Part shown: piece after piece, positions 6,008 through 54,580 of the stretch
How the letters are laid out: every line of letters begins with the position of its first letter
Numbering within the stretch: position 1 is the first letter of the stretch
Assembly (NCBI GenBank): GCA_036703195.1
Contig: DATNPN010000018.1
Span: forward strand, 52,631 to 116,630
Length of the DNA: 64,000 bases
Origin: Planktothrix sp.
Lineage (GTDB): Bacteria; Cyanobacteriota; Vampirovibrionia; Obscuribacterales; Obscuribacteraceae
Reading direction: 5' to 3'
Notes under the pieces: generated by a model
Databases searched by the model: none
The model's input: the letters and a program-made list of their open reading frames with translations, nothing else
What the model was told of the DNA's origin: nothing
Made by a program: the position numbers and the translations under genes

Positions 6008-7303
6008 ATGCCAACTTTACGTGAACGGATGGCGAATCTGCTCGCGCGATTGAATATCGGGAGTGTGACCATGAGCTTTACCAAAGATGACGCGACGCGT
6101 GAGCTGGAGCAGTACGCGTCTGATGTGGCGGCGGTGCGAGCAAAGGCGATGGCCTTTCCGAACGGCATCGCTACTGCCGATGCCTGCCTGACGGTTGCCG
6201 ACACCTACTTCTCGTCTGCCAACACGAGTTTTGCCGGCGGACGATGGCAGCAAGCCGTCGACAATCTGACGAGCGGGCGATTCTACCTCGACCTGGCCAC
6301 GGAAGTGGTGGAGGAGTATCAGGCGCAGACTCAGTTCTTCGCGGCTGAAGCGGCGACAAAACTAAAACTGCCCGAGTATCCTGAGCCCAACTACTGCGAC
6401 GGCGATCAGGAGTCGAACAACTACGAGTGGCGCGGACTGGCTCTGCTGCTGGCAAAGGCGGAGGCATCGGTGGACCAGTTCATCCCTGATGACGAGCACG
6501 CTTTGTGGTGCATCGATCAGGCGCTCGACTATCTCAACGAGCTGTACGACACCGATGATTGGGACAACGTCGCGCCGTACTCCCGCGACGGACGCCTCTA
6601 TGCCAATCTGGCGATCGAACTGGTGCGGCAGTTTCTCCAGGCGCGCGATGACCAATCGGCGCTGGCGAAGCTGAAGGACGCGGAGGAAAACTACCTTCTC
6701 GAATTGAGCGAGGAAGACGACGACGACACCAGCGCTGCCGCCGATTGGCTGTGGTCTGCGGTCACCGAAACGCACAAGGGATATCTCGAGTGCCAGCGCG
6801 ATTGCCCCAACACCAAGCTGGTGGCAACGCACATCGAGGAGGCCATCGCTTTTCGCGATGCCGCTCGAGACAAATACTGGGACGAAGAGTGGAACGACGC
6901 CGGTTGGCAGGCATGCGAGGCGGTGTTTCTCGGCAAGCTCGCAGTCGAGATGAGCAGCACGTACGCGCGCGAGGTCCGGTTGTTGGTTGAGGGTCCCGGG
7001 ACGTACGAAGCTGACATCGACGAGGCGGACTACACCGAGGACAGCGACGATAGCGATCGGCAGGATGCTCTCGAGCAGTGGCGTCAAGTCGCCATTCGCG
7101 GAGTCAAAGCGCAGGCGTACCTCGACAGCAAAGCCTCAGGCTTTACGGCTGGCGAAGGCTTCCTGCAAACTGCCATCGGTTACATCGACAACGTCAAGCA
7201 AGCTGATGATTGGGATGATGTGAGCGACCCGCTGCGCGATGCGAAGTACTACTTCAATCTCGCGGTGCAGAAGGCTCGGAGCTTCGTGGCGAATAACCGC
7301 TAA
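6008..7303 (+). CDS. Acidic, Trp-rich hypothetical protein with 3-4 internal repeats of an about 35-aa helical motif
   Basis: Internal repeats are W…DNL…GRFYLDLATEVV, DDWDNVAPYSRDGRLYANLAIELVRQF and DDWDDVSDPLRDAKYYFNLAVQKARSF. There is no signal peptide. A strong terminator follows the gene. Confidence 0.5.
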   Translation: MPTLRERMANLLARLNIGSVTMSFTKDDATRELEQYASDVAAVRAKAMAFPNGIATADACLTVADTYFSSANTSFAGGRWQQAVDNLTSGRFYLDLATEVVEEYQAQTQFFAAEAATKLKLPEYPEPNYCDGDQESNNYEWRGLALLLAKAEASVDQFIPDDEHALWCIDQALDYLNELYDTDDWDNVAPYSRDGRLYANLAIELVRQFLQARDDQSALAKLKDAEENYLLELSEEDDDDTSAAADWLWSAVTETHKGYLECQRDCPNTKLVATHIEEAIAFRDAARDKYWDEEWNDAGWQACEAVFLGKLAVEMSSTYAREVRLLVEGPGTYEADIDEADYTEDSDDSDRQDALEQWRQVAIRGVKAQAYLDSKASGFTAGEGFLQTAIGYIDNVKQADDWDDVSDPLRDAKYYFNLAVQKARSFVANNR

Positions 7304-7358: not shown

Positions 7359-7622
7359 TGCTCGCACATACTATCTGTTGTAGCATAATTGCCAAGGCTC
7401 CGAAGACAATCCTAAAGAGCTGTTGACAAAACACGGGCTGTCCGCGACCCCTTGATTTTCTCTGCATGCCCTTCGCCTGGCGCATTTGCAACCTTTTCAA
7501 AATTAGTCGATGACGGGGCTTCTTATAGAGCTCGTCATCTGCTAACGTTTTTCTCTGAAAATCATCGTAAGCTAAGACCGTTTTGCCGGTATCAACCCCC
7601 GCCGTTTCGGAAAGGAAAAACC

Positions 7623-8288
7623 ATGAAAGTCAATGCGTTGTTGCTTGGTGCCGTGCTCTCCTGCACCACACTGGCTGCCTACAGCTTTGAGAAGACCCAG
7701 CTTTTTCACTATGGGCAGAATGAGATGCACAGCGGCACCGCGATAGTTCGCGAGACCGGTCACGTAGACGCCTACGGCACGACGCAGGTTCAAGCTTACG
7801 ACCAGAGTGAGATCAAAGCGTACGACAAGGCGCAGGTCGAAGCGTATGGACACACGGTCGTATACGCCAATGCCGAGTCGAAAGTTACTGCTTTCGACAA
7901 TACCCGCGTTTTTGCCTCAGACCACGCTGAGATTGACGCTACTGGCTCGTCGACAGTACAAGCGGGCGGCAACTCCAATGTCATTGCTCACGGCAACGTC
8001 GCCATCGTCGCTAAGGACCACGCTACCATCAAAGCTTACGACCACTGCACCGTCTTCGCGGCAGACAATTGCAAAATCGAGGCGCATGGCGATGTTACGG
8101 TAATGTCGCTGGGCAACGTCAATGTGACGGCTTCCGACAACGTCAACGTTCGTGCCTACGGCAGCTGTGTCATTGATGCTACCGACAATGCCGTCATCGA
8201 CGCCAACGACAAAACCACCGTGCAAGCAACTAAAACAGTAAAAGTCGAATTGCACGACGCCGCCAAACAGATTCTCGCTAAAGGCTAA
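7623..8288 (+). CDS. Secreted protein composed of about 20 tandem octapeptide repeats (predicted beta-solenoid)
   Basis: It has a signal peptide (MKVNALLLGAVLSCTTLAAYS). After that comes a period-8 repeat (V/I)-x-A-x-(D/G)-x-x-x, for example VQAYDQSE / IKAYDKAQ / VEAYGHTV / VTAFDNTR / VFASDHAE / IDATGSST / IVAKDHAT / IKAYDHCT …. AAAGGA lies 8 nt upstream of the ATG at 7623. Confidence 0.6.
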   Translation: MKVNALLLGAVLSCTTLAAYSFEKTQLFHYGQNEMHSGTAIVRETGHVDAYGTTQVQAYDQSEIKAYDKAQVEAYGHTVVYANAESKVTAFDNTRVFASDHAEIDATGSSTVQAGGNSNVIAHGNVAIVAKDHATIKAYDHCTVFAADNCKIEAHGDVTVMSLGNVNVTASDNVNVRAYGSCVIDATDNAVIDANDKTTVQATKTVKVELHDAAKQILAKG

Positions 8289-8328
8289 GCCTCGACTGCG
8301 GCAGACCGGCAAATCAAAACAATCGATA

Positions 8329-8368
8329 GTGCGGCGCCACCATATTTGGTGGCGCCGCACTCATTTGT
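8329..8368 (+). terminator. Perfect 14-bp inverted repeat hairpin (probable terminator of the repeat-protein gene)
   Basis: GTGCGGCGCCACCA-TATT-TGGTGGCGCCGCAC is followed by TCATTTGTTG. Confidence 0.45.
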
Positions 8369-8673
8369 TGCGGGGTTGTTACGTCAAACGTATTGGTAAG
8401 GCGCAAACCAACCAGCGATAGCTAGCAATAGTCGGTGTCGGTGGAAAACACGAATGACATCCGCAGTTTTTCTCTCTTTTTTTGATCTCTGTAAGGCAGG
8501 GTAGGGATATCCATCCGTACACACTTTCATAGACCCAGGAGCAGAGCACACACAGTACTGCTTTTGTACACGAGGCAAACGAACGCCTATTCAACCGCAA
8601 TTCGGCGGTGAATTGGAATGTGTCGCGGATGTCAAATCGCGCAAGCGATCAATCCAGTATCAGGAGAAAAATC

Positions 8674-8940
8674 ATGTTTACCAACGAAACTGAATCGCGC
8701 TCTGAACAGCCGTCCAAGAAGCCCGACACCAACTTTGTAGCCTATGTCGGACCGATGGGCAACCTCCGTCAGGTCTCGCTGGAGCCGGGCACCTACTCGG
8801 TCCAGAAGATTCTCGACACCGCTGGAATGGTAATCAAGCCCGGCTACGAAGCTCGCGTCGATGGTGAGACTGTCTCGCCCTCCACGATCGTCGAGACCGG
8901 CGCCACCGTCTACCTGCTCAAGTCGGTCGCCGGCAACTAA
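8674..8940 (+). CDS. Small ubiquitin-like (beta-grasp) protein, Ubl component of a conjugation-type operon
   Basis: The 88-aa protein has an N-terminal polar tail followed by a beta-grasp-like core (…FVAYVGPMGNLRQVSLEPGTYSVQKILDTAGMVIKPGYEARVDGETVSPSTIVETGATVYLLKSVAGN). AGGAG lies 7 nt upstream. It is the first gene of an operon that also encodes JAB and E1-like proteins. Confidence 0.6.
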   Translation: MFTNETESRSEQPSKKPDTNFVAYVGPMGNLRQVSLEPGTYSVQKILDTAGMVIKPGYEARVDGETVSPSTIVETGATVYLLKSVAGN

Positions 8941-8962
8941 TAGTTGTCGCTCAGCCACTGCC

Positions 8963-8997
8963 GCAAGCAGCCTTCGCTTTACTGGGAGGCTGCTTGC
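8963..8997 (+). promoter_or_regulatory. Intercistronic stem-loop between the Ubl gene and the downstream large gene
   Basis: There is a perfect 10-bp stem GCAAGCAGCC / GGCTGCTTGC with a 15-nt loop and no U-tract. It lies 22 nt after the Ubl stop and 28 nt before the next start. Confidence 0.35.
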
Positions 8998-9025
8998 AAT
9001 GGCCGCAAATGGAAAAGGAGGAAGC

Positions 9026-11068
9026 ATGCATCACCATCGCCTTATTATTCTTCTAGTCTTTTTGATTGTTTCGGCCATCGTGGCTTTGACGCCCGGGTTG
9101 CGGCAAATCTTCATTGACTACTACGTCGCCTTGAGGAGGCGTTTCGGACCCCTGAGCGTCAGCCCGGCTGAGGTGAGGAGCTTTATGCCGCGTGTGCTCA
9201 AGGCTTTGAGCGACCGGTCTTCACTGGCACTCTCGCAGGACAGCGCCGGCACCGTAGCTTTCGAAGGTTTCAACGACTGTTACCGGGCGATCTTCCAGCC
9301 GCTCGTGGCTGCGATACTGGCGCCCGAAGTCGGCGCCTGTCGCGTGAAAAACTGCAACGGCATAGCACAAAGCGCTCCTGCCGACGCAGCGTTTCATATC
9401 CTCGTTTACAGCGCTGCGTCAGGAGTTGCTCAATGTCTCGCACCGGCGCGATACCAGAGAGACGACACTGAGACGATGTTCGCTCCAACCGGTCTTGGCG
9501 TACCGCTTATTGACGATGCTGGTTTTATCGTCGCGGAGTTGGTGGACAACTGCCTTTACGTGTTGGTGAATCCTTTCGTCAACGGCAATCTATCGGAAGC
9601 TCAGTCTTTCGGCGAGGTGCTTCTCAAGGCGAAAGAGGCTCTGCGTCAGTTGAAGAGCGCTGAAAGCGATAGCCTCAGATTCGAGACTGTTGCTGCTGCA
9701 CCAGCGCTTGGACGGTTCTGCGACACCGGCTACGTCGATCGTCAGCGCGAACAGCTGCGCAGCTTACACCGCCAACAGCATGAGCTGTTGTCTTACGAAG
9801 CAGCCGGCAATGGTGCTCCCGAGCGAGAGTTCGAGCAAATTTGCCGCAACTCCAAGGTGCTCAGTGTGAAGGTGACGTATAGAGCAATCATTGTCAGAAC
9901 AGACGTGCTCTACTGCGATAGCAGCTACAACTCGCAGCTGTACGAGATTGGTGCCTTTCGCATCCGCATTCCTTTCTCACCCAGAGGGAACGTGTCCTGG
10001 AGAAACACCACCCGGTTGGTGAGAGCGTATTACGAAAGGCGCTTCCACGCTCCGCACGTGCCGTTCTTTCACAAACCTTGCCTTGGTTCGGCAAAGCACA
10101 CATTCCCCAAGTTGATCCGCGATCGTCAGTTTGCTGCTGCCGTCGACCTGGCCATTGCCTTTGTGCAGTCGGCCAATGAAAACGACCCATGGGGGCGACA
10201 TGTGGTTGATTGGCCAATCGCTCATGTTCGTCATAAGACGAAATACAGGGCGACGAGCTACACATACCTCTTGCCCGTCTCTTGCCGTGAGAAGCTTCGC
10301 GATATCCGATTTAGCGAAGATGGCAATTACCTGGTGGTTGAGGGGCAGGAGTTACAGGCTGCCCTAATCGCCATCGGCAGCGACGCCTACGAGGACGGCA
10401 CGGATCGCGGAAGAGTCGTTCTCAAGCTGACGACGCCCAAGCAAAAGCCTGCTGTTGTTGCAATAGCGGGTGCACGCGAACGATACCTCAGGGCTTGCCG
10501 CGGTCGAGAGGAAGGCGCCAGTGAAGAACTGGTTCGGCAGATTCACGCCTCCACAGTCACTCTGCGTTCATACGAAGAACAGCTCTTCTGGCAGATCCGC
10601 GATCAATTCTGCCGAGAGAGTTCGGACGATGAGCGCGCTGCTAACGCGAAAGAACAGTGGCAGCGGCTGACTCAACATCGCAAGATCGAGCGGGTGCGCG
10701 TGGTCAACGGCACAATCTTGATCGATACGAAAACTCTGTTCGGCAAAAGCCGCAAAACAAAAGAGCTGCACGAGCTGGGAGCGTTCACGATCGCAATCGG
10801 CGCCAACAGCGGCAAGTTCGGCGTGCGCTGGTTTAACCGGACCCGGCGCTCACCCCTGATCGGGATGAATGCCGCCAATGTCTTTGCAGACGGCACACCC
10901 GTTTGCGAGGAGGTGCTCGCCACCCTGCTCGAACTCGGCGCTCGCTGCGAATTCGGTGATGTCGCCAATCTCGCCATTCAATTCGTCGAGGCCGTCAGCG
11001 AGACGTCCGCGGGGTATCTGGATGGATGGCCGAAAGCCCAGGAGGTGAAAGTCCATGCAAACGCCTAA
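9026..11068 (+). CDS. Large operon component: N-terminal TM helix plus two tandem copies of an about 120-aa Cys-containing domain (candidate E2-like/transferase module)
   Basis: The start at 9026 (MHHHRLIILLVFLIVSAIVALTPGL) is preceded by AGGAGG. The internal duplication is …VKVTYRAIIVRTDVLYC…LYEIGAFRIRIPF…HAPHVPFFHKPCLGS…DLAIAFVQSANENDPWG versus …VRVVNGTILIDTKTLFG…LHELGAFTIAIGA…NAANVFADGTPVCEE…NLAIQFVEAVSETSAGYLDGWP. The beta-meander followed by an H-x-P-H…C stretch resembles the UBC fold (HPN…C). The gene overlaps the JAB gene by 14 nt. Confidence 0.5.
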   Translation: MHHHRLIILLVFLIVSAIVALTPGLRQIFIDYYVALRRRFGPLSVSPAEVRSFMPRVLKALSDRSSLALSQDSAGTVAFEGFNDCYRAIFQPLVAAILAPEVGACRVKNCNGIAQSAPADAAFHILVYSAASGVAQCLAPARYQRDDTETMFAPTGLGVPLIDDAGFIVAELVDNCLYVLVNPFVNGNLSEAQSFGEVLLKAKEALRQLKSAESDSLRFETVAAAPALGRFCDTGYVDRQREQLRSLHRQQHELLSYEAAGNGAPEREFEQICRNSKVLSVKVTYRAIIVRTDVLYCDSSYNSQLYEIGAFRIRIPFSPRGNVSWRNTTRLVRAYYERRFHAPHVPFFHKPCLGSAKHTFPKLIRDRQFAAAVDLAIAFVQSANENDPWGRHVVDWPIAHVRHKTKYRATSYTYLLPVSCREKLRDIRFSEDGNYLVVEGQELQAALIAIGSDAYEDGTDRGRVVLKLTTPKQKPAVVAIAGARERYLRACRGREEGASEELVRQIHASTVTLRSYEEQLFWQIRDQFCRESSDDERAANAKEQWQRLTQHRKIERVRVVNGTILIDTKTLFGKSRKTKELHELGAFTIAIGANSGKFGVRWFNRTRRSPLIGMNAANVFADGTPVCEEVLATLLELGARCEFGDVANLAIQFVEAVSETSAGYLDGWPKAQEVKVHANA

Positions 11069-12167
11069 GCCAGAAAAGGCAAAAGCTTCGTCCAAAGACG
11101 AAGAGAGCGGGTTTTTCCAGAAGATGCTGTCGCTGCGTTCGGCCGTGCCGGACGGTGAGACGGTTTTGGTTGAGCCGCCCGTCCTGCCGAAACCCCCCTC
11201 CGCTAACAACAAGCCCAGTGCCAATCCTGCTCCTCTGGGGCTGGGCATCGCCACTCCTCCTCCTCCTTTCGCAAGCGTTTCACCGCTCAGCGATCTACCA
11301 CTGATGCTGCACGATTACCATCCGCGCGCGGAGCTGATTGAGAGACCGCCGGCAGTGTTTCTCACTCCTGAGACATACAAGCGAATCTCTCTATTCATTC
11401 ACGTCGGCAAGCGTGAGGTTGGCTGGATGGGCACCGTAACAAAATCAGAGCAGGGTGACTATTTAATCGATCAAGTCTTCCTGCTGCACCAGAACGTCTC
11501 CGATGTCGAAACTGAGATAACTCGAGATGGGCTGGCCAAGCTCGGTATGGAGCTGCAGCGCCAATACGGCGCCGACACGATCAAGCACGTGAATCGCCTG
11601 CACTTCTGGGGGCATTCGCATGTGCGCATGGGGACGGGACCATCCCCCCGCGACGAAAACACTTCCCTGCGATTCGGCTGGAACGACGACTTTCAACTGC
11701 TCATTCGCGGCATCTTCAACAAGCGCGGACGAGCGGAGTTTGCCATCTATCGTTTCGACAAGGGCATTCGCATCCTCGATGTGCCGTGGGGAATCTATGA
11801 TCCGGCTACAAAATCGGTTCTCTATCTGCGCCAAAAAGAAAAACCGTTTTTCTTCGCCAATGGACCGGCGTACAGCCAGATGCAACCTCCATCGACTGTG
11901 GCAAGCGCCGTCACGGCTTCAACGCAGAAGTTGAAAACGGCGGTGGTGAATGAGGTGAGACAGTCCGTCGACAGTGTCACCGCCATGTTCGATAAAGAGC
12001 TGACGCTGGAGCAGAAGTTCGCTGGGCTGCCTGAGCTGCTCCGCCCCACCCAGGCAGAGTTGCAAGCAGTGCAGAGCGAATACGACGAAAAAGTAGTCGA
12101 GCATATCGTGCCCGGCTTCACCAAAGTGCGCGAGTGGGTGGGTGCGCTGAAACGGAGCATAAAATGA
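11055..12167 (+). CDS. JAB/MPN+ (JAMM) metallopeptidase with a Pro-rich N-terminal extension
   Basis: It has a perfect JAMM motif: Glu (KREVGWMG) followed by HFWGHSHVRMGTGPSPRD, which is H-x-H-x7-S-x2-D. AGGAGG lies upstream. Its stop overlaps the E1 start in the sequence AATGA. Confidence 0.75.
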   Translation: MQTPKPEKAKASSKDEESGFFQKMLSLRSAVPDGETVLVEPPVLPKPPSANNKPSANPAPLGLGIATPPPPFASVSPLSDLPLMLHDYHPRAELIERPPAVFLTPETYKRISLFIHVGKREVGWMGTVTKSEQGDYLIDQVFLLHQNVSDVETEITRDGLAKLGMELQRQYGADTIKHVNRLHFWGHSHVRMGTGPSPRDENTSLRFGWNDDFQLLIRGIFNKRGRAEFAIYRFDKGIRILDVPWGIYDPATKSVLYLRQKEKPFFFANGPAYSQMQPPSTVASAVTASTQKLKTAVVNEVRQSVDSVTAMFDKELTLEQKFAGLPELLRPTQAELQAVQSEYDEKVVEHIVPGFTKVREWVGALKRSIK

Positions 12168-12871
12168 ATCAGAATCCGATTAACACGTCTCGCCTGGTTG
12201 AGGTTTTCTCGGCGGAGGCTTTCGACAACCGGCGTATCGATGTGATTGGAGCCGGCGCTACAGGGAGCAAAGTGGTTCTGGAGCTGGCAAAAGCCGGGCT
12301 GGACGATATTCACGTCTACGACTTCGACACCGTCGCGCACGAGAACATCGGCAATCAGGCGTACCGTCGTGAACGCGACATCGACCAACTCAAGGTAGAT
12401 GCGCTTCAAAACCTGGTCTACGAGGCCACCGGTCTGAAGGTCAATACTCACGCAGAACGAGTAGACGGCTCGCAAGAGCTGGGAGACATCGTCTTCCTGC
12501 TGACAGACCGCATGGACTCTCGCAAACAGATCTTCGAGAGCTCCATCAAATACAACATGAACGTCCAACTGATGATCGAGACGCGCATGGGCGTAGACCA
12601 GGGGCGCGTGTACGCAGTCAATCCGAATGACTCCGTACACGTTCGTGCCTGGACGAAAACACTGTGCGACGATGTGGTCACCGAAACTTCCGCTTGCGGT
12701 ACCAAAATCAGCGTCGGCCCCACAGCCGGCATCATCGCCAATTATGCGATGTGGGCACTGTTTCGTTGGTCTGCTCTGCAAATCAACCCGGACGGCGAAG
12801 ACAAGCTGGAAAATGAGTTGATCGTCAGTCTGCGCCCGCCGGCGCTGATGACGCGCTTCTTCAACCGGTAA
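12164..12871 (+). CDS. Minimal E1-like (ThiF/MoeB/HesA superfamily) adenylyltransferase
   Basis: It has a Rossmann GxGxxG motif (IDVIGAGATGSKVVLELAKAGL) and a ThiF-type motif YDFDTVAHENIGNQ (compare D-x-D-x-V-x-x-S-N-L-N-R-Q). A candidate catalytic Cys lies in ETSACGT. The protein is 235 aa. Confidence 0.8.
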   Translation: MNQNPINTSRLVEVFSAEAFDNRRIDVIGAGATGSKVVLELAKAGLDDIHVYDFDTVAHENIGNQAYRRERDIDQLKVDALQNLVYEATGLKVNTHAERVDGSQELGDIVFLLTDRMDSRKQIFESSIKYNMNVQLMIETRMGVDQGRVYAVNPNDSVHVRAWTKTLCDDVVTETSACGTKISVGPTAGIIANYAMWALFRWSALQINPDGEDKLENELIVSLRPPALMTRFFNR

Positions 12872-12879
12872 GATGGAGT

Positions 12880-12920
12880 GGGCAACGGTCTATGGCCGTT
12901 GCCCCTCTCTCACTTTTGAC
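12880..12920 (+). terminator. Candidate terminator of the Ubl operon
   Basis: A 9-bp stem GGGCAACGG / CCGTTGCCC with a 7-nt loop is followed by CTCTCTCACTTTTG. Confidence 0.4.
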
Positions 12921-49011: not shown

Positions 49012-52000
49012 CTACTTCCTGAATTTGCTCGACGCCAGAATATAGCTGAGTGAGTCAGGGGTTCCGTGATCCTTCACCCAATTAAAATGGTCGGCAGCCT
49101 GATTTGGCGACCCTTCCAACTGTGCATTGAAACCAAGCCATGTGTGGGCGTCGGTGAGAAACGGATTGTTGTCGGCTGCCGCCGTCATAACATCGGATTC
49201 TGATCCGACCCGGCGCAAGAAAGAAAGCACAGGCGCCGGCCACACTTCGGTCGGCAGATGCGCGGCCGCGCTGTCCAACTGTTTGGTCGCGGCGGAGCGC
49301 TGACTGTCCAGGCCATATCCCAGCCACTCGAGGAGCGCTGCGGTGCCCGAGTTTTGAAACTTCCAGCCGCTGAGAGCAAGATATCTTTGCCCGTCACTGG
49401 CAGCCTTCTCTCCCTGCCCCAGCGCATTATAGGCGACGGATCTCTCCAGGTGTGCCATGGCGATGTGGTCTGACACTTCTGGGTCAAAGCTCTTCTGGGC
49501 GCGATCGATGTAGGCCGAATAGTCGTCGGCAGCCTGTTGAAACTTGCCGTCGTGCAGATTAGCCCGAGCCCTGAAATAGTATGGATCGAGAGCGCCTGGA
49601 CTGGCCGCTATGGCAGCGGTTTCGCTCTGCACGGCTTGAGCATACTGTTTTGCAGCCATTTGCGTTTCGCCTTGCACCTGCAAACAGTAGACGTCTCGTG
49701 GCTTCAGCTGAACGGCCTTATCTGCCAGATCCGTTGCTTGGGCGGTCTGACCAAGTGCCATCGCTGCCAGAGCCGCGGTCGCTAGTTCATGTGCATCGCT
49801 GCTCTTGCCAAATTTTTTCACTGTGGCGGCAGCAACCGATTTCAAATTATTGGCCGCCAATGCAAACTGAGGATCGATCTCCAACGCTGCCATGAAATCT
49901 CTCAGAGCTTGAGCTTTATTGCCTAATTCAGAAACGGTGAATCCTCTGTCGTTAAAACAGTCTGGACGACCCGGCATTATGCGCAACGAAGCTGAGTAGG
50001 CCCTTTCTGCTTCCGCTTTCCGGCCAAGCTTTCGCAGCGCCGTCGCCTTATCGAAGTATGTAACAGCTGAATTAGGCTGCAGCCGCAAGGCTTGGTCGGC
50101 GGCATTCACTGACGCTGTGTAATCTCCCAGTGAGAAGTAGATTGCAGAGAGGTCTCTAAACGCGTCGGCGTACGAAGGATCCAGTTGGGTGGCCTTGCGC
50201 AGATCGGGGAGCGAATTCTTGTACTGCTTCATGCGCGAGTATGCCAGTGCTCTCCCGAAGTATGCCTGTTTGTTGTTCGAGTCGCCTTTGATGATTTTGC
50301 TGTAGTCCGCAATCGCTTTGTTGTACTCCTTCAGCCATACCAGCGCCGCGGCGCGGTCCAACAGTACTTTTGCGTTGTCCGGGTCGAGACGCAAGGCGTT
50401 GTCGTAATCATCGGCTGCTTGCCTGTACTGTTGCAACGCGTAAGCGCAATTTCCCCGACTGTGATAAAGCTCCGGGTCGCTCGGGTCGGCGGCGATGGCT
50501 TCATCATAATGCTCCATCGCTTCCGTCCAGCGCCCTTGCGAACGAGCGGTGTCGGCTTGCTCGGCCGCGTTGCCGCCGGCTCCGCCAATCTTGGTGATGT
50601 CGAGACCACCCTTGCCGTGTCCCAGCATGTTGTATACGACGGCACCGGTGCCGATGCACAGTGCCACAGCGACGCAGGCGCCAATGATAAGTTTGGCCGG
50701 TCCTTTGGAAGCGCGCTTTTGCTGCGGTAAATCGGCAGCCGATCCTTCCAGCAGATGCGCATAGCGATTGGCAAGATTAGGATCGCGCGGAGCACGTGAC
50801 TCCTCCTGCGGTCTGCGAGACGGGGACGTCTCACTGCCACCGCCAGGAGTGCGAGCGGGCGGGCTCGGATCTGCCGATGGCATACTTTGACCCGTGCGCA
50901 TCAGCGGCTTTTCTGGCGCTGCCGGTATGGTCACCCGTGCTTTCTGTTGCGATGAGGTGTCCGAGTCGTCGGTTATGACCGTGTCGGAAGGAGTGTTCAT
51001 CTGCACGGGCGAGGGTACGGACGCAGACGCCGGCTCCGCCGGCGGCACGAAGTTCTGTGCTCGAGAATCCGGCATTTGAGACAGTTGAGGCTGTCCGGCG
51101 AACGAGGCGTTGCCATCCTCGTCATAAGTGGGTGCACCTGTTCCGAAAGGCGACAGATTAGCCGGCTTCACTGGAGCAGGGGGTTCGCCTGGAAGTCCGA
51201 ACGGGGAGAGGTTGGCCGCGAGCGGCTCTGGTTGTGGCGGCGGAAAAGATGGAGTGGTTGGGGGCGGCGCACTCATTTGCGGCGGAAATGGAGGCGCCGG
51301 AAACGGCGACTGACCACCGGCGAGAGGCTGCATCGGTTGGGCCGCCGGCTGATTGGTCATCGATTGCCTGGGCGTGGCAGGCTGCTGTGCCGGCAGCGAC
51401 TGCGATGTCGACGGGCGAGGTCCGAAGCGAGTGCTGGGCGATGCTCCCGTGATGCCGAAAAAGCCTGTCTCTTCAGCCAGCTTGTGAACGTCGGAGGTCG
51501 TGTTGTGGCTCGGATCGATAAATTTCGTCTCCGGCGGCAACACAGGCAAAGGGCTATTTAGATTGACGGACTTTGTGAAATCGCGGGTCGGCTTCTCTTG
51601 ATCCGGTTTTGCTTCTGCCACCTCCTGCGGTGGCGTCGTCGGAAGATTCATGGTCGCTTCGCCGCTTGACTCTTGGCTCACCGGTTCTTTGCGAGATGGC
51701 GGCAGAATCGAGCGCAAACTGGGCAATCCTGAGCGGGTGGTCTCGTTGTATTTCTCGCTTTTTGCATCCTCTTCCAGGCGAGCGAGCTTTTCATTAAAGC
51801 CGATCCCTTCCGTCGGCATCTTGATGTGCGTCTCTTGATCGCTTGCCGCAACGCCCCACTGCGCGTTTTCCGGCAGGCGAGGACGAGGACCGGTATCGGT
51901 CATGAGCTTCTCTGATGGTGGTATCGCACGTAGTGGCATTTTTGGCGTCAGGTCCGGATTGAAATCCGGATTGAGCGGCTCTCTGTCATTCACCGAACGG

Positions 52001-53937
52001 TTGGATTGAACGATTGTTATCTTGGGTTGACCCCCGCTGCTCTCGGAGTTGAACGACCCTCCCGGGTGATGTGCGTTGGGAAGTTCGGTGTGAGATTCCT
52101 GTCGTTCGCGTTCGCCGGTCTTCTGCTCCAACTGTTGCAATGCGTTTTGCGCTGGTTGATTGACCTGTGTTTTGTCGTCCTGCTCATCTTCGATGCGATA
52201 CGACCAGTCGCCAGGTATCTCTTTGTTGCGCGATCTGTCCAGCATTGATGCGGCCTGCTCGAGCTGCGAGCCGAGATTGGCCGGCTCACCTTGCGCACCT
52301 ATCTGCGTGGGCTCTCCGACGGGTTTGCCCGGGTCACCAGGCATGACCGGAGCAAAACCTGTGCCTGTGCCGAGAGCGTCCGTGACTTTGCGGTGCCGAC
52401 CAGGCTCATCCCAGGAAAGCGAATCACCTTCGAAGCGCTTTTCGATCGGCATGCTCGTCTGACTGGCTGTCGGTTCGAGCCGCTCTTGCACGCCCGGTTC
52501 GCCCCAACCGTCAACAGGTGCGAAAGCAGGCAATTCCAACGTTTTCGTCCCGACCGGGTCTTGCGGTTTGTTGCCACCAGGTATGATTTCTGGTTGAGGC
52601 GGTGCGGTCGGCGGCGAGGGCGGAGCGTACTCCCAAGCCCCTTGAGGCATTGGCGCATTAGCATTGGGCACGGGCATGCCCGGCGCCGTTTGTGCCTGTG
52701 GTGGCGCCGGCGGTTGCACTGATTGCACCCTCTGCGGCATCAGCGGCGGAGTTTGCAACTGCGGGGGAGTTTGCAGCTGCGGCGGCGCCGGCGGTTGAAC
52801 GGACTGCAACTGCGGTGGCATCAGCGGCGCTTGGGCAGTTGCAGGCTGCGGCTGCCCGGGCTGAACGATTTGCTGATTACTAAGCGGCTGCTGGGATGGC
52901 ATGCCGGCTGGGGGCTGCCCGGGCGGTGGCATGGCATTAGGCTGCTGCCAGAGTGGCGCTTGAGGCGCAGCTGCTTGGGCCCCGGGAGCAGGAAGGGGCG
53001 GTTGAAGATAGGGATTCGGAGGAGGTTGTTGTGGCTGAGCCCCGGACTGAGTCTGTCGCGGATCGGCTTGTGGGCTGGGTGAAGAGGGCCAACCAGCGTT
53101 TTGTTGTGGCTGCGGTGGCGACGCGGGCTGCTGGGGAGGCAGCGGACGAGAAGGGCCGCCCTGTGGAATTTGCGGCGGAGTGTTGGGCATCCATGCCAAT
53201 TGCTGCGCGGGAATGGCCGATTGTGTTGGAGGAGCGGGACGTGCTGGCGGCTGAGGGGGCTGGATTGATTGTTGTGGCGGCTGCAGCGGTTGCTGTTGCT
53301 GCAGCGCTTGCTGTTGTTGCAGCGGTTGCTGTTGTTGCAGCGGTTGCTGTTGCTGCAGCGGTTGCTGTTGTTGCAGCGGTTGCTGTTGTTGCAGCGGTTG
53401 CTGTTGTTGCGGCGGTTGCTGTTGCTGCAGCGGTTGCTGTTGTTGCAGCGGTTGCTGTTGTTGCAGCGCTTGCTGTTGTTGCAGCGGTTGCTGTTGCTGC
53501 AGCGCTTGCTGTTGTTGCGGTAGTGCGGGTTGATGTTGCTGCGGTATCGGTGCGGGCTGCTGCTGCTGCTGCGACGATTGCTGGGCGTTTGTGAGCGACT
53601 GTTGTACACGGTTGACTGCCCCCTTCAGGTCCGGCGTGCCGGAAAATGAGGCGGGTCGAGGCAGAGCGTCGGTCGGATTGCTGAAGCTGCCAAGCATCGG
53701 GCCGCCGTCTCGACGCATCGGAATGATTGTCGGTGGCGGCAGCTCTTCCCGATTTTCCATCGGTGGCGGTCCGGTAATAGGTTCGTCGTCCGGTGTGTTG
53801 CTGTCGTCTGAGTAGGGCATGCCGGCTTCTTCAGCAGAAAGCGGCTCGTCGCTATCGCCGAGATTGTTTTTGCCGTCGGAGCGCCTTCGCCTCCGATTTT
53901 GTGCAGCGTCGTCGTTTGCTGCCATAGTTCCGCACAC
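49012..53937 (-). CDS. Giant (1641 aa) Pro/Gln-rich low-complexity protein with one TM helix and a C-terminal TPR array
   Basis: The N-terminal about 1000 aa are P/Q-rich and include a (QQQQPL)n run. A TM helix follows (AKLIIGACVAVALCIGTGAVVYNML), then about 15 TPR-like repeats. Confidence 0.7.
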   Translation of the reverse strand: MCGTMAANDDAAQNRRRRRSDGKNNLGDSDEPLSAEEAGMPYSDDSNTPDDEPITGPPPMENREELPPPTIIPMRRDGGPMLGSFSNPTDALPRPASFSGTPDLKGAVNRVQQSLTNAQQSSQQQQQPAPIPQQHQPALPQQQQALQQQQPLQQQQALQQQQPLQQQQPLQQQQPPQQQQPLQQQQPLQQQQPLQQQQPLQQQQPLQQQQALQQQQPLQPPQQSIQPPQPPARPAPPTQSAIPAQQLAWMPNTPPQIPQGGPSRPLPPQQPASPPQPQQNAGWPSSPSPQADPRQTQSGAQPQQPPPNPYLQPPLPAPGAQAAAPQAPLWQQPNAMPPPGQPPAGMPSQQPLSNQQIVQPGQPQPATAQAPLMPPQLQSVQPPAPPQLQTPPQLQTPPLMPQRVQSVQPPAPPQAQTAPGMPVPNANAPMPQGAWEYAPPSPPTAPPQPEIIPGGNKPQDPVGTKTLELPAFAPVDGWGEPGVQERLEPTASQTSMPIEKRFEGDSLSWDEPGRHRKVTDALGTGTGFAPVMPGDPGKPVGEPTQIGAQGEPANLGSQLEQAASMLDRSRNKEIPGDWSYRIEDEQDDKTQVNQPAQNALQQLEQKTGERERQESHTELPNAHHPGGSFNSESSGGQPKITIVQSNRSVNDREPLNPDFNPDLTPKMPLRAIPPSEKLMTDTGPRPRLPENAQWGVAASDQETHIKMPTEGIGFNEKLARLEEDAKSEKYNETTRSGLPSLRSILPPSRKEPVSQESSGEATMNLPTTPPQEVAEAKPDQEKPTRDFTKSVNLNSPLPVLPPETKFIDPSHNTTSDVHKLAEETGFFGITGASPSTRFGPRPSTSQSLPAQQPATPRQSMTNQPAAQPMQPLAGGQSPFPAPPFPPQMSAPPPTTPSFPPPQPEPLAANLSPFGLPGEPPAPVKPANLSPFGTGAPTYDEDGNASFAGQPQLSQMPDSRAQNFVPPAEPASASVPSPVQMNTPSDTVITDDSDTSSQQKARVTIPAAPEKPLMRTGQSMPSADPSPPARTPGGGSETSPSRRPQEESRAPRDPNLANRYAHLLEGSAADLPQQKRASKGPAKLIIGACVAVALCIGTGAVVYNMLGHGKGGLDITKIGGAGGNAAEQADTARSQGRWTEAMEHYDEAIAADPSDPELYHSRGNCAYALQQYRQAADDYDNALRLDPDNAKVLLDRAAALVWLKEYNKAIADYSKIIKGDSNNKQAYFGRALAYSRMKQYKNSLPDLRKATQLDPSYADAFRDLSAIYFSLGDYTASVNAADQALRLQPNSAVTYFDKATALRKLGRKAEAERAYSASLRIMPGRPDCFNDRGFTVSELGNKAQALRDFMAALEIDPQFALAANNLKSVAAATVKKFGKSSDAHELATAALAAMALGQTAQATDLADKAVQLKPRDVYCLQVQGETQMAAKQYAQAVQSETAAIAASPGALDPYYFRARANLHDGKFQQAADDYSAYIDRAQKSFDPEVSDHIAMAHLERSVAYNALGQGEKAASDGQRYLALSGWKFQNSGTAALLEWLGYGLDSQRSAATKQLDSAAAHLPTEVWPAPVLSFLRRVGSESDVMTAAADNNPFLTDAHTWLGFNAQLEGSPNQAADHFNWVKDHGTPDSLSYILASSKFRK
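53279..53520. repeat. In-frame 18-bp tandem repeat array (about 13 copies of CAGCGGTTGCTGTTGTTG and variants) within the giant gene
   Basis: This is direct reading of the sequence. On the coding (minus) strand it encodes (QQQQPL)n with Ala substitutions. Confidence 0.85.
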
Positions 53938-54580
53938 TCCGGTCCCAGCAGTCTTATACCAACGGATAAGTACTAGTTAAACCAGTTAAAGGGGGCGAGC
54001 AGAAGGAATTTTTTTGGCGAGGCTGCAAAATCGAGTTATCAGACAGCGATTTGCGCACCGCGGCTGGTGGCAACGACGGCGTGAAAAGAATGGACAAGAA
54101 GTGTTGAGGAGGTGGGCCGCACGCGAGCCCGCTTGTCATGAGGCTCTTGGATGTCATGCACCGATCTCGTGTTGCTATCGAGGTTGCGCTAATTGCGGAT
54201 CTCTTATTCCGAAAGCCTCTTGGCAGGCTGGGCTGACGGTGTTTCGCTAACTGAGAAGTGCGCGCCGGTGTTCTCTTTTCTCTCTCCCCCGACGAGAGCG
54301 CGGCACAGCATCGTCTGCGTCATTGGCGAGATTTCAAGATCTGATCATTGCTTTTAGCTACACGTCGCGTTTAGTTTCTCACTGCTCTTTAGTTTCTTAA
54401 TTTCCTCCTCAAAGCTTTTATCCCGCGACCACTCTCTTTTCCCTCTCCACTCCAATCCGTCAGCGCGTTATTCGTTCTAAGAACGTGCGGAGGGTGACAC
54501 TGTATTTGGTGCGGGTGACCGTTCGCTATCTCGAATTGTTTTAAGCGCAACTAAGCGCAAATGAGATAAGGAGCTGTCTT

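Follow-up and report, generated by a model that had tools for sequence, protein, structure and literature searches.

A probable ubiquitin-like conjugation cassette with two fused E2-like domains in an Obscuribacteraceae contig and its bacterial and phage relatives

A 64,000-nucleotide stretch of a contig that GTDB assigns to the Obscuribacteraceae (GenBank assembly GCA_036703195.1, contig DATNPN010000018.1, forward-strand positions 52,631 to 116,630; the whole stretch is hereafter called the window) contains four co-oriented genes that encode a putative ubiquitin-like protein (Ubl), a large protein of 680 amino acids (aa), a predicted JAB metallopeptidase, and a predicted E1 enzyme. We estimate a probability of about 0.7 that this cassette is a complete Ubl-conjugation system of a lineage not described by the four family libraries that we searched (Pfam, NCBIfam, PADLOC, and PHROGs). 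The computational analyses that carry this reading provide a fold or family identity for each of the four proteins, the conservation of their catalytic residues, the synteny of their genes, and their distribution.

A preliminary description, made from the sequence alone, had proposed this gene layout and suggested that no characterized system has the same combination of components. The four open reading frames were confirmed by reading the sequence, and an independent gene caller (another assembly of the same DNA) gave the same 88-, 680-, and 370-aa products. In the library scans only the E1 was recognized; the Ubl, the 680-aa protein, and the JAB protein had no match in any of the four libraries, and their identities were therefore established through families of relatives. 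The PADLOC release used (PADLOC-DB 2.0, dated 2023) may lack Bil and Bub. The cassette is not described in the literature that we searched, which includes Iyer et al. 2006 (PMC1779556); most subscription papers were outside our reach, and a prior description is possible. These results agree with the suggestion that the combination is uncharacterized. The cassette belongs to a large family, present in Melainabacteria, CPR bacteria, and numerous phages, that the four libraries do not describe. Its features are listed below, with genes taken from the open reading frame list.

8674-8940, + strand: Ubl gene, 88 aa
8731-8937, + strand: Ubl beta-grasp domain, ThiS/SAMP2-like, 67 aa, after an N-terminal extension of ~19 aa (from the family profile)
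8932-8937, + strand: codons of the tail Gly87-Asn88 (protein end ...SVAG87-N88-stop; from tail statistics)
9026-11068, + strand: gene of the large fusion protein, 680 aa, with, in order, a transmembrane anchor, an N-domain resembling class-I glutamine amidotransferases (GATase1-like), a coiled linker, E2-like domain 1 (A-type), a linker region, and E2-like domain 2 (B-type)
9041-9097, + strand: predicted transmembrane or signal-anchor helix, aa 6-24, LIILLVFLIVSAIVALTPG (KD19 = 2.76; helix predicted)
9248-9655, + strand: alpha/beta N-domain, ~aa 75-210, confidently predicted, with weak GATase1-like fold similarity
9827-10222, + strand: E2-like domain 1, A-type, aa 268-399, motif H341-A-P-H344-V-x6-P-C352-L-G354
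10079-10081, + strand: codon of Cys352, predicted catalytic (thioester) Cys of domain 1, invariant in 107 of 107 A-like sequences and in register with the active-site Cys of UBE2A and UBE2D2
10655-11038, + strand: E2-like domain 2, B-type, aa 544-671, degenerate motif A616-A-N618-V...T-P-V-C627
11055-12167, + strand: JAB (JAMM/MPN+ metallopeptidase) gene, 370 aa
11325-11840, + strand: JAB core, aa 91-262, after a Pro-rich N-terminal region and before a C-terminal helical tail with conserved K346/V347
11613-11654, + strand: JAB zinc-binding motif H187-S-H189-x7-S197-x2-D200, read in the sequence and invariant
12164-12871, + strand: E1 gene, 235 aa, minimal single-domain ThiF/MoeB type (from Pfam ThiF and conservation over 125 sequences)
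12695-12697, + strand: codon of E1 Cys178, 99% conserved in 125 sequences and aligned with the crossover-loop Cys of E. coli MoeB

The E2-like, Ubl, JAB, and E1 components

The internal tandem duplication that had been proposed for the 680-aa protein is real: BLASTP of its two halves gives E=2e-7, and the family hidden Markov model (HMM) finds two full-length copies of one domain, at aa 268-399 (134 bits) and aa 544-671 (94 bits). The domain has the consensus (A/H)-P-H-V-x3-G-x-(A/P)-C-x-G, with strand-like segments before it and two helices after it. The predicted domain shows the elements of the alpha/beta UBC fold: an N-terminal helix, an antiparallel beta-meander, an active-site loop, and C-terminal helices. 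A search of the PDB with the domain profile returned 14 weak matches, nine of them ubiquitin-conjugating enzymes, and aligned the motif to FHPNVYADGSICL of UBE2A. The same register was obtained with hhalign against an alignment of five human E2s (probability 93.7%, E=2e-7, 102 columns); this alignment places APHV-x3-G-x-AC over HPNV-x3-G-x-IC and the next helix over the E2 alpha2/PNP region. The Asn of the HPN motif is replaced by His in the A-type domain, and the presumed catalytic Cys follows ~8 residues after the HPN-type motif, as in E2s. BubB and a CdnG-associated E2 are among the structural matches of the domain.

Structure prediction from 11 full-length sequences reached a pLDDT of 62 and from a 107-sequence alignment a pLDDT of 87; a Foldseek search of the latter model against the PDB gave no significant match. 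Pfam E2 families also gave none for the window protein at E<=0.1, nor for 10 relatives at E<=0.01. Given profile-level E2 similarity and no Pfam or Foldseek match, the assignment is made at the level of the UBC superfamily, from profile-profile and fold evidence. At that level, each repeat of the 680-aa protein appears to be a diverged UBC-fold E2 domain. The preliminary description had the canonical E2 replaced by the 680-aa protein, and we rejected replacement by a non-E2 protein, as both repeats have the UBC fold. The system would thus keep the canonical E1-E2 logic, its E2 being diverged, duplicated, fused, and anchored in the membrane.

Although the duplication stands, the two copies are not the equivalent Cys-bearing domains that they had been taken for: domain 1 belongs to a conserved A-type and domain 2 to a paralogous B-type. 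Both the His and the Cys are kept in all 27 unique A-type sequences and in two of 31 B-type sequences, and all 107 aligned A-type sequences share H344, C352, G354, and P397. In the B-type, the His is substituted by R, Y, N, Q, or T and the Cys is lost in 14 of 31 sequences; in domain 2 of the window protein, the His is replaced and C627 lies one position off the family Cys column. By analogy, we infer that the B-type domain is a catalytically degenerate, UEV-like partner. The pair recalls the eukaryotic heterodimer of an active E2 and an inactive variant, Ubc13-Mms2/Uev1a, in an analogy drawn solely from sequence degeneration; unlike Ubc13 and Mms2, the window domains are fused in one membrane-anchored chain, and the pairing arose independently in this bacterial and viral family. 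In most relatives A and B are two separate adjacent genes. The separate A protein corresponds to the N-terminal half of the window protein and the B protein to the C-terminal half, so the 680-aa protein is an A+B fusion; further A+B fusions occur at four related loci (L040, L042, L047, and L048).

The N-terminal transmembrane helix is also borne out, and an equivalent hydrophobic segment is found in 39 of 72 long A-like representatives. The N-domain that follows shows a weak fold resemblance to the GH42 middle domain, HisH, PdxT, and IFT52, and has no conserved catalytic Cys or other nucleophile. It is repeated two to four times in longer relatives (for example the 1104-aa P0003) and is presumed to be a binding or target-recognition module.

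The Ubl family profile matched SAMP2 in the PDB (E=7e-5 to 4e-4), followed by MoaD, RnfH, ThiS, and TtuB, and Pfam ThiS and SAMP2 are matched by 17 and nine, respectively, of 36 family members. As judged from these matches, the 88-aa protein is the single-domain beta-grasp Ubl that had been proposed, of the ThiS/MoaD/SAMP clade and with a conserved Gly in its tail. The tail Gly is invariant among all 118 unique Ubl domains; the residue after it is Asn in 107 of them, Ala in 10, and Glu in one, and Gly-Gly never occurs. In the family profile alignment the K/R-G-N tail is in register with K-G-G of SAMP2, position for position. The domains stop at the post-Gly residue in 52 cases, have one to three extra residues in 33, and have a longer continuation in another 33, where the continuation is either a further Ubl domain or a fused region. 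Tandem poly-Ubl precursors with two or three such domains account for 25 of the Ubl proteins. Asn88 may be viewed either as the terminal residue that is activated or as a cap removed by the JAB protein, and we lean toward an activated terminal residue from the tail lengths. Since Gly-Ala and Gly-Glu variants exist, Asn side-chain chemistry cannot be essential or universal.

The third protein is predicted to be a JAMM/MPN+ metallopeptidase. The textbook JAB motif read in its sequence proved conserved in orthologs: the five JAMM residues (including E121) are invariant in 34 of 34 relatives and also in a 29-sequence core alignment of cellular and phage proteins. Searches of the PDB with the single sequence and with a full-length profile gave no match, and a trimmed core profile (29 sequences) was required. 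It matched Rpn11 (E=1.8e-4), BRCC36, CSN5, PSMD14, and archaeal JAMM1, with 37 of 39 matches being JAMM proteins, and these matches align the JAMM motif. Pfam Prok-JAB gives weak matches in 19 of 29 members and none for the window protein itself.

The fourth protein matches Pfam ThiF (PF00899) with 69 bits against a cutoff of 28.1 over aa 19-202, and its adenylation residues are conserved (G29/G31/G34 of the GxGxxG loop, D53, N61, Q65, K77, D115, R120, and R141), in agreement with the proposed 235-aa minimal ThiF/MoeB-type E1. Of these residues, G29/G31/G34, D53, K77, D115, R120, and R141 also align with E. coli MoeB, and the Rossmann-type ATP-binding domain includes an Arg finger and a Mg-binding Asp. 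The 125-sequence alignment shows no C-terminal CxxC zinc site. NCBIfam E1 models score far below their cutoffs (TIGR02356 62 vs 275; MoeB models 33-42 vs 266-376; PRTRC_ThiF, TIGR03736, 38.9 bits vs 144.75; 6A-MBL cap2_3 34 vs 320), and the PADLOC CBASS E1-E2 models match weakly (19-35 bits) and in the Rossmann region only. The protein thus seems to belong to the ThiF/MoeB/E1 adenylating enzymes and not to be a thiamine or molybdopterin equivalog.

The GN tail raises a further possibility for the activation step. MccB adenylates an Asn, which goes on to form a succinimide. An E1 with such chemistry would adenylate Asn88, form a succinimide, and leave the Ubl C-terminus nucleotidylated or otherwise modified instead of entering a plain thioester relay. 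This would fit the frequency of Asn after the invariant Gly, the many domains that end at the post-Gly residue, and the register with the SAMP2 tail, which suggests that Asn is the terminal reactive residue; the E1 and MccB are, moreover, in the same superfamily. We nevertheless consider it very improbable: the ten Gly-Ala members and the Gly-Glu member show that this chemistry cannot be universal, no N-terminal peptide clamp of the MccB type is present in the E1 (the ThiF match fills most of its 235 aa), MccC/D/E-like genes are not present, and the invariant E2 Cys favors a thioester relay.

Relatives in bacterial genomes and on viral contigs

Word-index searches found 11 homologs of the large protein and 35 of the JAB protein, none with a Pfam domain, and a third homolog search with a domain-fragment profile found only two short proteins. 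The A-type profile, used in an exhaustive HMMER search, reached 2,517 clusters (50% identity) at E<=1e-3 and 1,641 at E<=1e-10. Ten sampled A-type family members have no Pfam domain above the family cut-off, and one of them has a single sub-threshold match.

A genome scan with the JAB family identified 56 loci, mostly in Candidatus Obscuribacterales/Melainabacteria metagenome-assembled genomes (MAGs); ~8 are in Saccharibacteria or other members of the candidate phyla radiation (CPR), and a handful fall outside these groups. Two cassette loci are present in several MAGs. The cassette is thus typical of the Obscuribacterales lineage. A viral scan found JAB relatives on 239 viral contigs, 80 of which were fetched for locus analysis; the JAB gene is present in 80 of the 80 and the E1 gene adjoins it in 78. 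The two viral loci that were checked are real phages: one (L086) has portal and large terminase genes beside the module, and the other (L075) has a large terminase gene. Genes for DNA polymerase A, DnaB, and a DUF5906 primase-helicase often lie near the viral modules.

In nearly all of 146 loci the JAB and E1 genes are adjacent. A domain of ~130 aa that matches both repeats of the window protein adjoins them in 115 of the 146, and a Ubl gene stands beside the cassette in most. The usual order in Melainabacteria is Ubl, A (~630 aa), B (~290 aa), JAB, and E1. Directly 3' of the E1 gene and on the same strand, 23 of the 37 Melainabacteria-type loci with enough downstream sequence encode a ClpB/Hsp100-like double-AAA+ protein of ~813 aa (L007, L009, and L036 among them; L036:10466-12907). 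No viral locus has this gene, nor does the JAB-E1-A arrangement.

Among GenBank phages there was no JAB match, and the E1 had distant matches only: a crAss-like phage, plus phage records of ~227-229 kb from Xanthomonas (four) and Erwinia (one). The crAss-like phage cr85_1 (MT774390.1 78201-82557; L147) encodes an annotated 'metalloprotease' and 'ThiF' pair with the JAMM motif HSHNLMATFFSGED. Upstream of the pair is a protein with 'HSHI...PCLG', and before that one with a Ubl-like N-terminus. Read by eye, these genes look like a remote version of the four-gene module; the link is by-eye because the cassette HMMs did not detect the neighboring cr85_1 proteins.

Several loci carry additional copies of module components; a search of the window for extra cassette copies found none. 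Many Melainabacteria loci (L007, L009, L018-L021) have a second set of E2-like genes, A' and B' (~620 and 290 aa), which precedes the Ubl gene by a few kb, and at L009 and L010 a TerD/vWA-TerF-like gene lies between them. Some large viral contigs have further copies of module parts within 10 kb of the first: at L075/L129 (16695-19333) these are a second, more divergent JAB-E1 pair, and at L070 (1136-4527) an E2-like gene and an E1.

A proposed conjugation route and competing explanations

The components suggest the following route. The 88-aa Ubl would be made with its invariant Gly followed by Asn; relatives often have extra residues or a poly-Ubl precursor. The JAMM peptidase would generate the free, reactive Ubl C-terminus and probably also reverses conjugates. 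The minimal ThiF-type E1 would adenylate this C-terminus and probably load the Ubl on its crossover-loop Cys178, from which the Ubl would be handed on to Cys352 in UBC-fold domain 1 of the large protein. The degenerate second UBC-fold domain may act as a UEV-like partner, as Mms2 does with Ubc13; it would do so in cis here and from a separate adjacent gene in most relatives. The transmembrane helix would tether the E2 module to the membrane on its cytoplasmic side, with the GATase1-like N-domain likely serving as a substrate- or partner-binding element. The Ubl would then be moved to target lysines with no dedicated E3.

Several points weigh against this route. Its chemical steps, the topology, the UEV-like role, and the targets are all inferred from sequences and predicted models, and no target, E3, or effector was identifiable. 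The Ubl ends in Gly-Asn and not Gly-Gly; either the E1 would activate a C-terminal Asn or the Asn would first be removed. Pfam E2 models (UQ_con, Prok-E2_A to E, RWD, and UEV) match none of 40 sequences of the E2-like domain at E<=1. Domain 2 may not be inactive, because it keeps a Cys one residue off the family column and has an Asn at the HPN-like position. Finally, a search of the 64-kb window did not find the ClpB-like AAA+ gene that adjoins 23 of 37 related loci.

The AAA+ gene that so often adjoins the Melainabacteria cassettes suggests that tagging is coupled to an unfoldase. Pup marks proteins for Mpa, and SAMPs and ubiquitin mark them for Cdc48 and the proteasome. By the same logic, the Ubl could mark proteins, perhaps membrane-proximal ones, for an Hsp100/ClpB-type AAA+ unfoldase, a proteostatic or regulatory role that is compatible with the route set out above. 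The chromosomal, lineage-typical occurrence of the cassette is consistent with this idea, as is the finding that the closest solved relatives of the Ubl and JAB proteins are the archaeal SAMP2/JAMM1 pair. Adjacency is no proof of coupling, though, no protease partner was identified, and the AAA+ gene is missing from the window, the viral loci, and the JAB-E1-A arrangement. We regard an unfoldase-coupled role as possible but hold it tentatively.

A role in antiphage defense had been raised in the preliminary description, and here we find it unlikely. The cassette has the same component set as Bil operons, which consist of BilA (Ubl), BilB (E2), BilC (JAB), and BilD (an E1 of IAD-AAD-CYS build) (PMC11601596). 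A Bil-like system would attach the Ubl to structural proteins of phages to prevent their assembly, which would make the cassette a mobile module for defense. The weak PADLOC matches of the E1 to CBASS E1-E2 models and the occurrence of relatives in phage genomes, which often carry defense or counter-defense genes, are in keeping with this proposal. Against it, the Ubl, the E2-like protein, and the JAB protein match no PADLOC model, the E1 is a 235-aa single domain, and no CapW/BrxR or CapH/CapP-like regulator was seen. The window neighbors are ordinary chromosomal genes with no phage or defense hallmarks among those scanned, so the context lends a defense reading no positive support, and composition is uniform. 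The cassette is lineage-typical in Obscuribacterales, with two loci in several MAGs, and the phage copies are surrounded by genes for replication and packaging. More natural guesses than defense are housekeeping or regulatory tagging in the lineage and, separately, some role during phage infection.

Still less probable is a sulfur carrier of the ThiS/MoaD/CysO/QbsE type, in which the E1 would adenylate the Ubl, its thiocarboxylate would serve as donor for a cofactor or metabolite, and the JAB protein would only unmask the C-terminus. The Ubl has ThiS, MoaD, SAMP2, and TtuB as relatives, ThiF and MoeB are the best family matches of the E1, and sulfur carriers that a JAB protein trims have been described (Iyer et al. 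2006, PMC1779556). The window and the related loci, however, contain no conserved rhodanese, cysteine desulfurase, thiazole or molybdopterin synthase, or other biosynthetic gene near the cassette, which does not lie in a sulfur-transfer or cofactor context. The low NCBIfam ThiF/MoeB scores, the poly-Ubl precursors, the presence of the cassette in phage genomes, and a tail ending in GN and not GG speak against it as well. We rejected cofactor sulfur transfer on account of the missing pathway genes and of the UBC-fold protein with an invariant Cys that is an obligate partner of the cassette.

A comparison with known conjugation systems places the cassette closest in composition to Bil and closest in its Ubl and JAB proteins to archaeal sampylation. 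Like Bil, it has a stand-alone Ubl, a predicted UBC-fold E2 with a Cys, a JAMM peptidase that presumably matures and deconjugates the Ubl, an E1, and no E3. It differs from Bil in having an E1 of a single adenylation domain where BilD is multidomain; in its distinct E2 family (APH...C, not HPN...C), which sits in 400-1100-aa multidomain, often membrane-anchored proteins with a degenerate paralog; and in its single SAMP2/ThiS-like beta-grasp Ubl with a GN end and frequent poly-Ubl forms. The distribution (Melainabacteria, CPR, and phages) and context differ too, and there is no sequence-level match to a defense model. As we read its component list, class 6d of Iyer et al. 2006 probably corresponds to Bil types I and II.

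With the archaeal SAMP/UbaA/JAMM1 system (and Thermus TtuB/TtuC), the cassette shares a minimal MoeB/ThiF-type E1 and a K-G-X tail spacing identical to that of SAMP2; SAMP2 is the nearest solved relative of its Ubl (E ~1e-4) and JAMM1 is among the matches of its JAB protein. Sampylation is E2-independent, whereas the cassette has an obligate syntenic UBC-fold E2, and SAMPs end in GG and double as sulfur carriers, whereas the cassette Ubl ends in GN and shows no sulfur-carrier sign in its context.

Bub (6E/DUF6527), CBASS Cap2/Cap3 (6C), 6A-MBL, and PRTRC (6B) are, like the cassette, prokaryotic conjugation modules of E1/E2/JAB type. Bub has poly-Ubl precursors that are cleaved by JAB, a Ser/Tyr oxyester relay, and a DUF6527 protease (PMC11601596). 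The cassette has a conserved Cys in both E1 and E2, where Bub has Tyr (E1) and Ser (E2), and no DUF6527 match was found among the cassette and flanking window proteins scanned. In Type II CBASS, Cap2 is an E2-E1 fusion acting on a CD-NTase; the cassette E1 and E2 are separate genes, and there is no CD-NTase among the window proteins scanned. PRTRC cassettes combine PRTRC_ThiF with PRTRC proteins A-F and a ParB-related gene on an ICE or plasmid. PRTRC and 6A-MBL are set apart by model scores far under the cutoffs, and within NCBIfam no PRTRC model other than PRTRC_ThiF (itself below cutoff) matched the cassette proteins.

Ubl conjugation in bacteria has been shown only recently, in Bil, Bub, and CBASS Cap2/Cap3, and each characterized line has brought new chemistry. 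The cassette would add a further large family, with ~2,500 E2-like clusters, 56 genome loci, and relatives on 239 viral contigs, that is distinguished by a Gly-Asn Ubl tail, a His in place of the catalytic-loop Asn of the E2, and a minimal E1. It offers a natural pairing of an E2 with an E2 variant in both fused and unfused forms, and phage-encoded versions that lie beside replication genes. Learning what use phages and the poorly understood Melainabacteria and Saccharibacteria make of it would extend the view of how ubiquitin-type signaling evolved, and could explain the unassigned 'ThiF + metalloprotease' gene pairs annotated in crAss-like phages. A broader and more speculative proposal, to which we give a minority weight, combines several of these elements: a distinct, uncatalogued Ubl-conjugation lineage common to phages (possibly including crAss-like ones) and a few bacterial phyla, in which the Ubl would be activated at its C-terminal Asn, the E2 would work through a Pro-His...Cys site with a UEV-like paralog, and the Melainabacteria version would feed the adjacent Hsp100-type unfoldase. 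If all of this were true, bacteria would have, in the cassette, a counterpart of tagging by ubiquitin plus a segregase, with an origin outside the known Bil, Bub, and CBASS lines.

Transcription unit and genomic surroundings

The four genes are translationally coupled in the window. The large-protein and JAB genes share 14 nt (11055-11068), and the JAB stop and E1 start overlap in ATGA (12164-12167), both as proposed and as confirmed by reading the sequence. Shine-Dalgarno-like sequences precede the first three starts (AGGAG before 8674, AAGGAGG before 9026, and AGGAGG before 11055). The flanking features are as follows.

8328-8361, + strand: strong intrinsic-terminator-like hairpin of the upstream gene (terminator scan: 15-bp stem, 11 GC pairs, T-rich tail)
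8362-8673, + strand: 312-nt untranslated leader between the upstream terminator and the Ubl start
12872-12911, + strand: GC-rich hairpin directly 3' of the E1 stop (dG -27.6 kcal/mol, z = -4.6, 0 of 200 shuffles equally stable)

The upstream hairpin is read as the 5' boundary of the cassette transcription unit. A consensus scan called no sigma70 promoter in the cassette region. The predicted fold of the leader is somewhat stabler than that of shuffled sequences (z = -2.65), and an Rfam scan of the whole window gave no match at all, the leader included. For the 3' end, an operon-specific terminator had been described: the stable hairpin is there, with a weak T-tract and no call in the consensus terminator scan; it is a probable terminator of the cassette.

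The G+C content of the operon (0.53-0.57) is the same as that of its flanks, and composition therefore shows no sign of recent acquisition. The window neighbors encode a secreted beta-helix repeat protein, TPR proteins, FtsH, SPFH proteins, peptidases, and a Ser/Thr kinase, along with what we take, by eye from open reading frame translations, to be a class-I aldolase and a methylmalonyl-CoA epimerase. Neither composition nor context backs a recently acquired island, which we rejected; with uniform composition, ordinary chromosomal neighbors, and a lineage-typical distribution, the earlier idea of an independently acquired cassette has no support.

Two genes just upstream of the cassette, neither of them conserved beside it in relatives, have unusual products. 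Positions 6008-7303 encode a 431-aa, very acidic protein that apparently has repeated modules when inspected by eye and has no family match. The secreted beta-helix repeat protein (222 aa, 7620-8288) shows weak similarity to the VgrG/gp5 spike and to LktA-type tandem repeats.

The G+C content of the window is ~56%, the cellular relatives of the cassette are all from Obscuribacterales/Melainabacteria or CPR, and no photosynthesis gene is present among the ~25 window proteins scanned; the 'Planktothrix sp.' label that NCBI gives to the bin may be wrong. Farther along the window, a 1641-aa TPR-containing open reading frame occupies 49012-53937 on the - strand. In the 51000-54000 region GC skew rises to 0.25 and AT skew falls to -0.37, and this strong skew suggests that the N-terminal part of the 1641-aa reading frame is low in complexity or repetitive.

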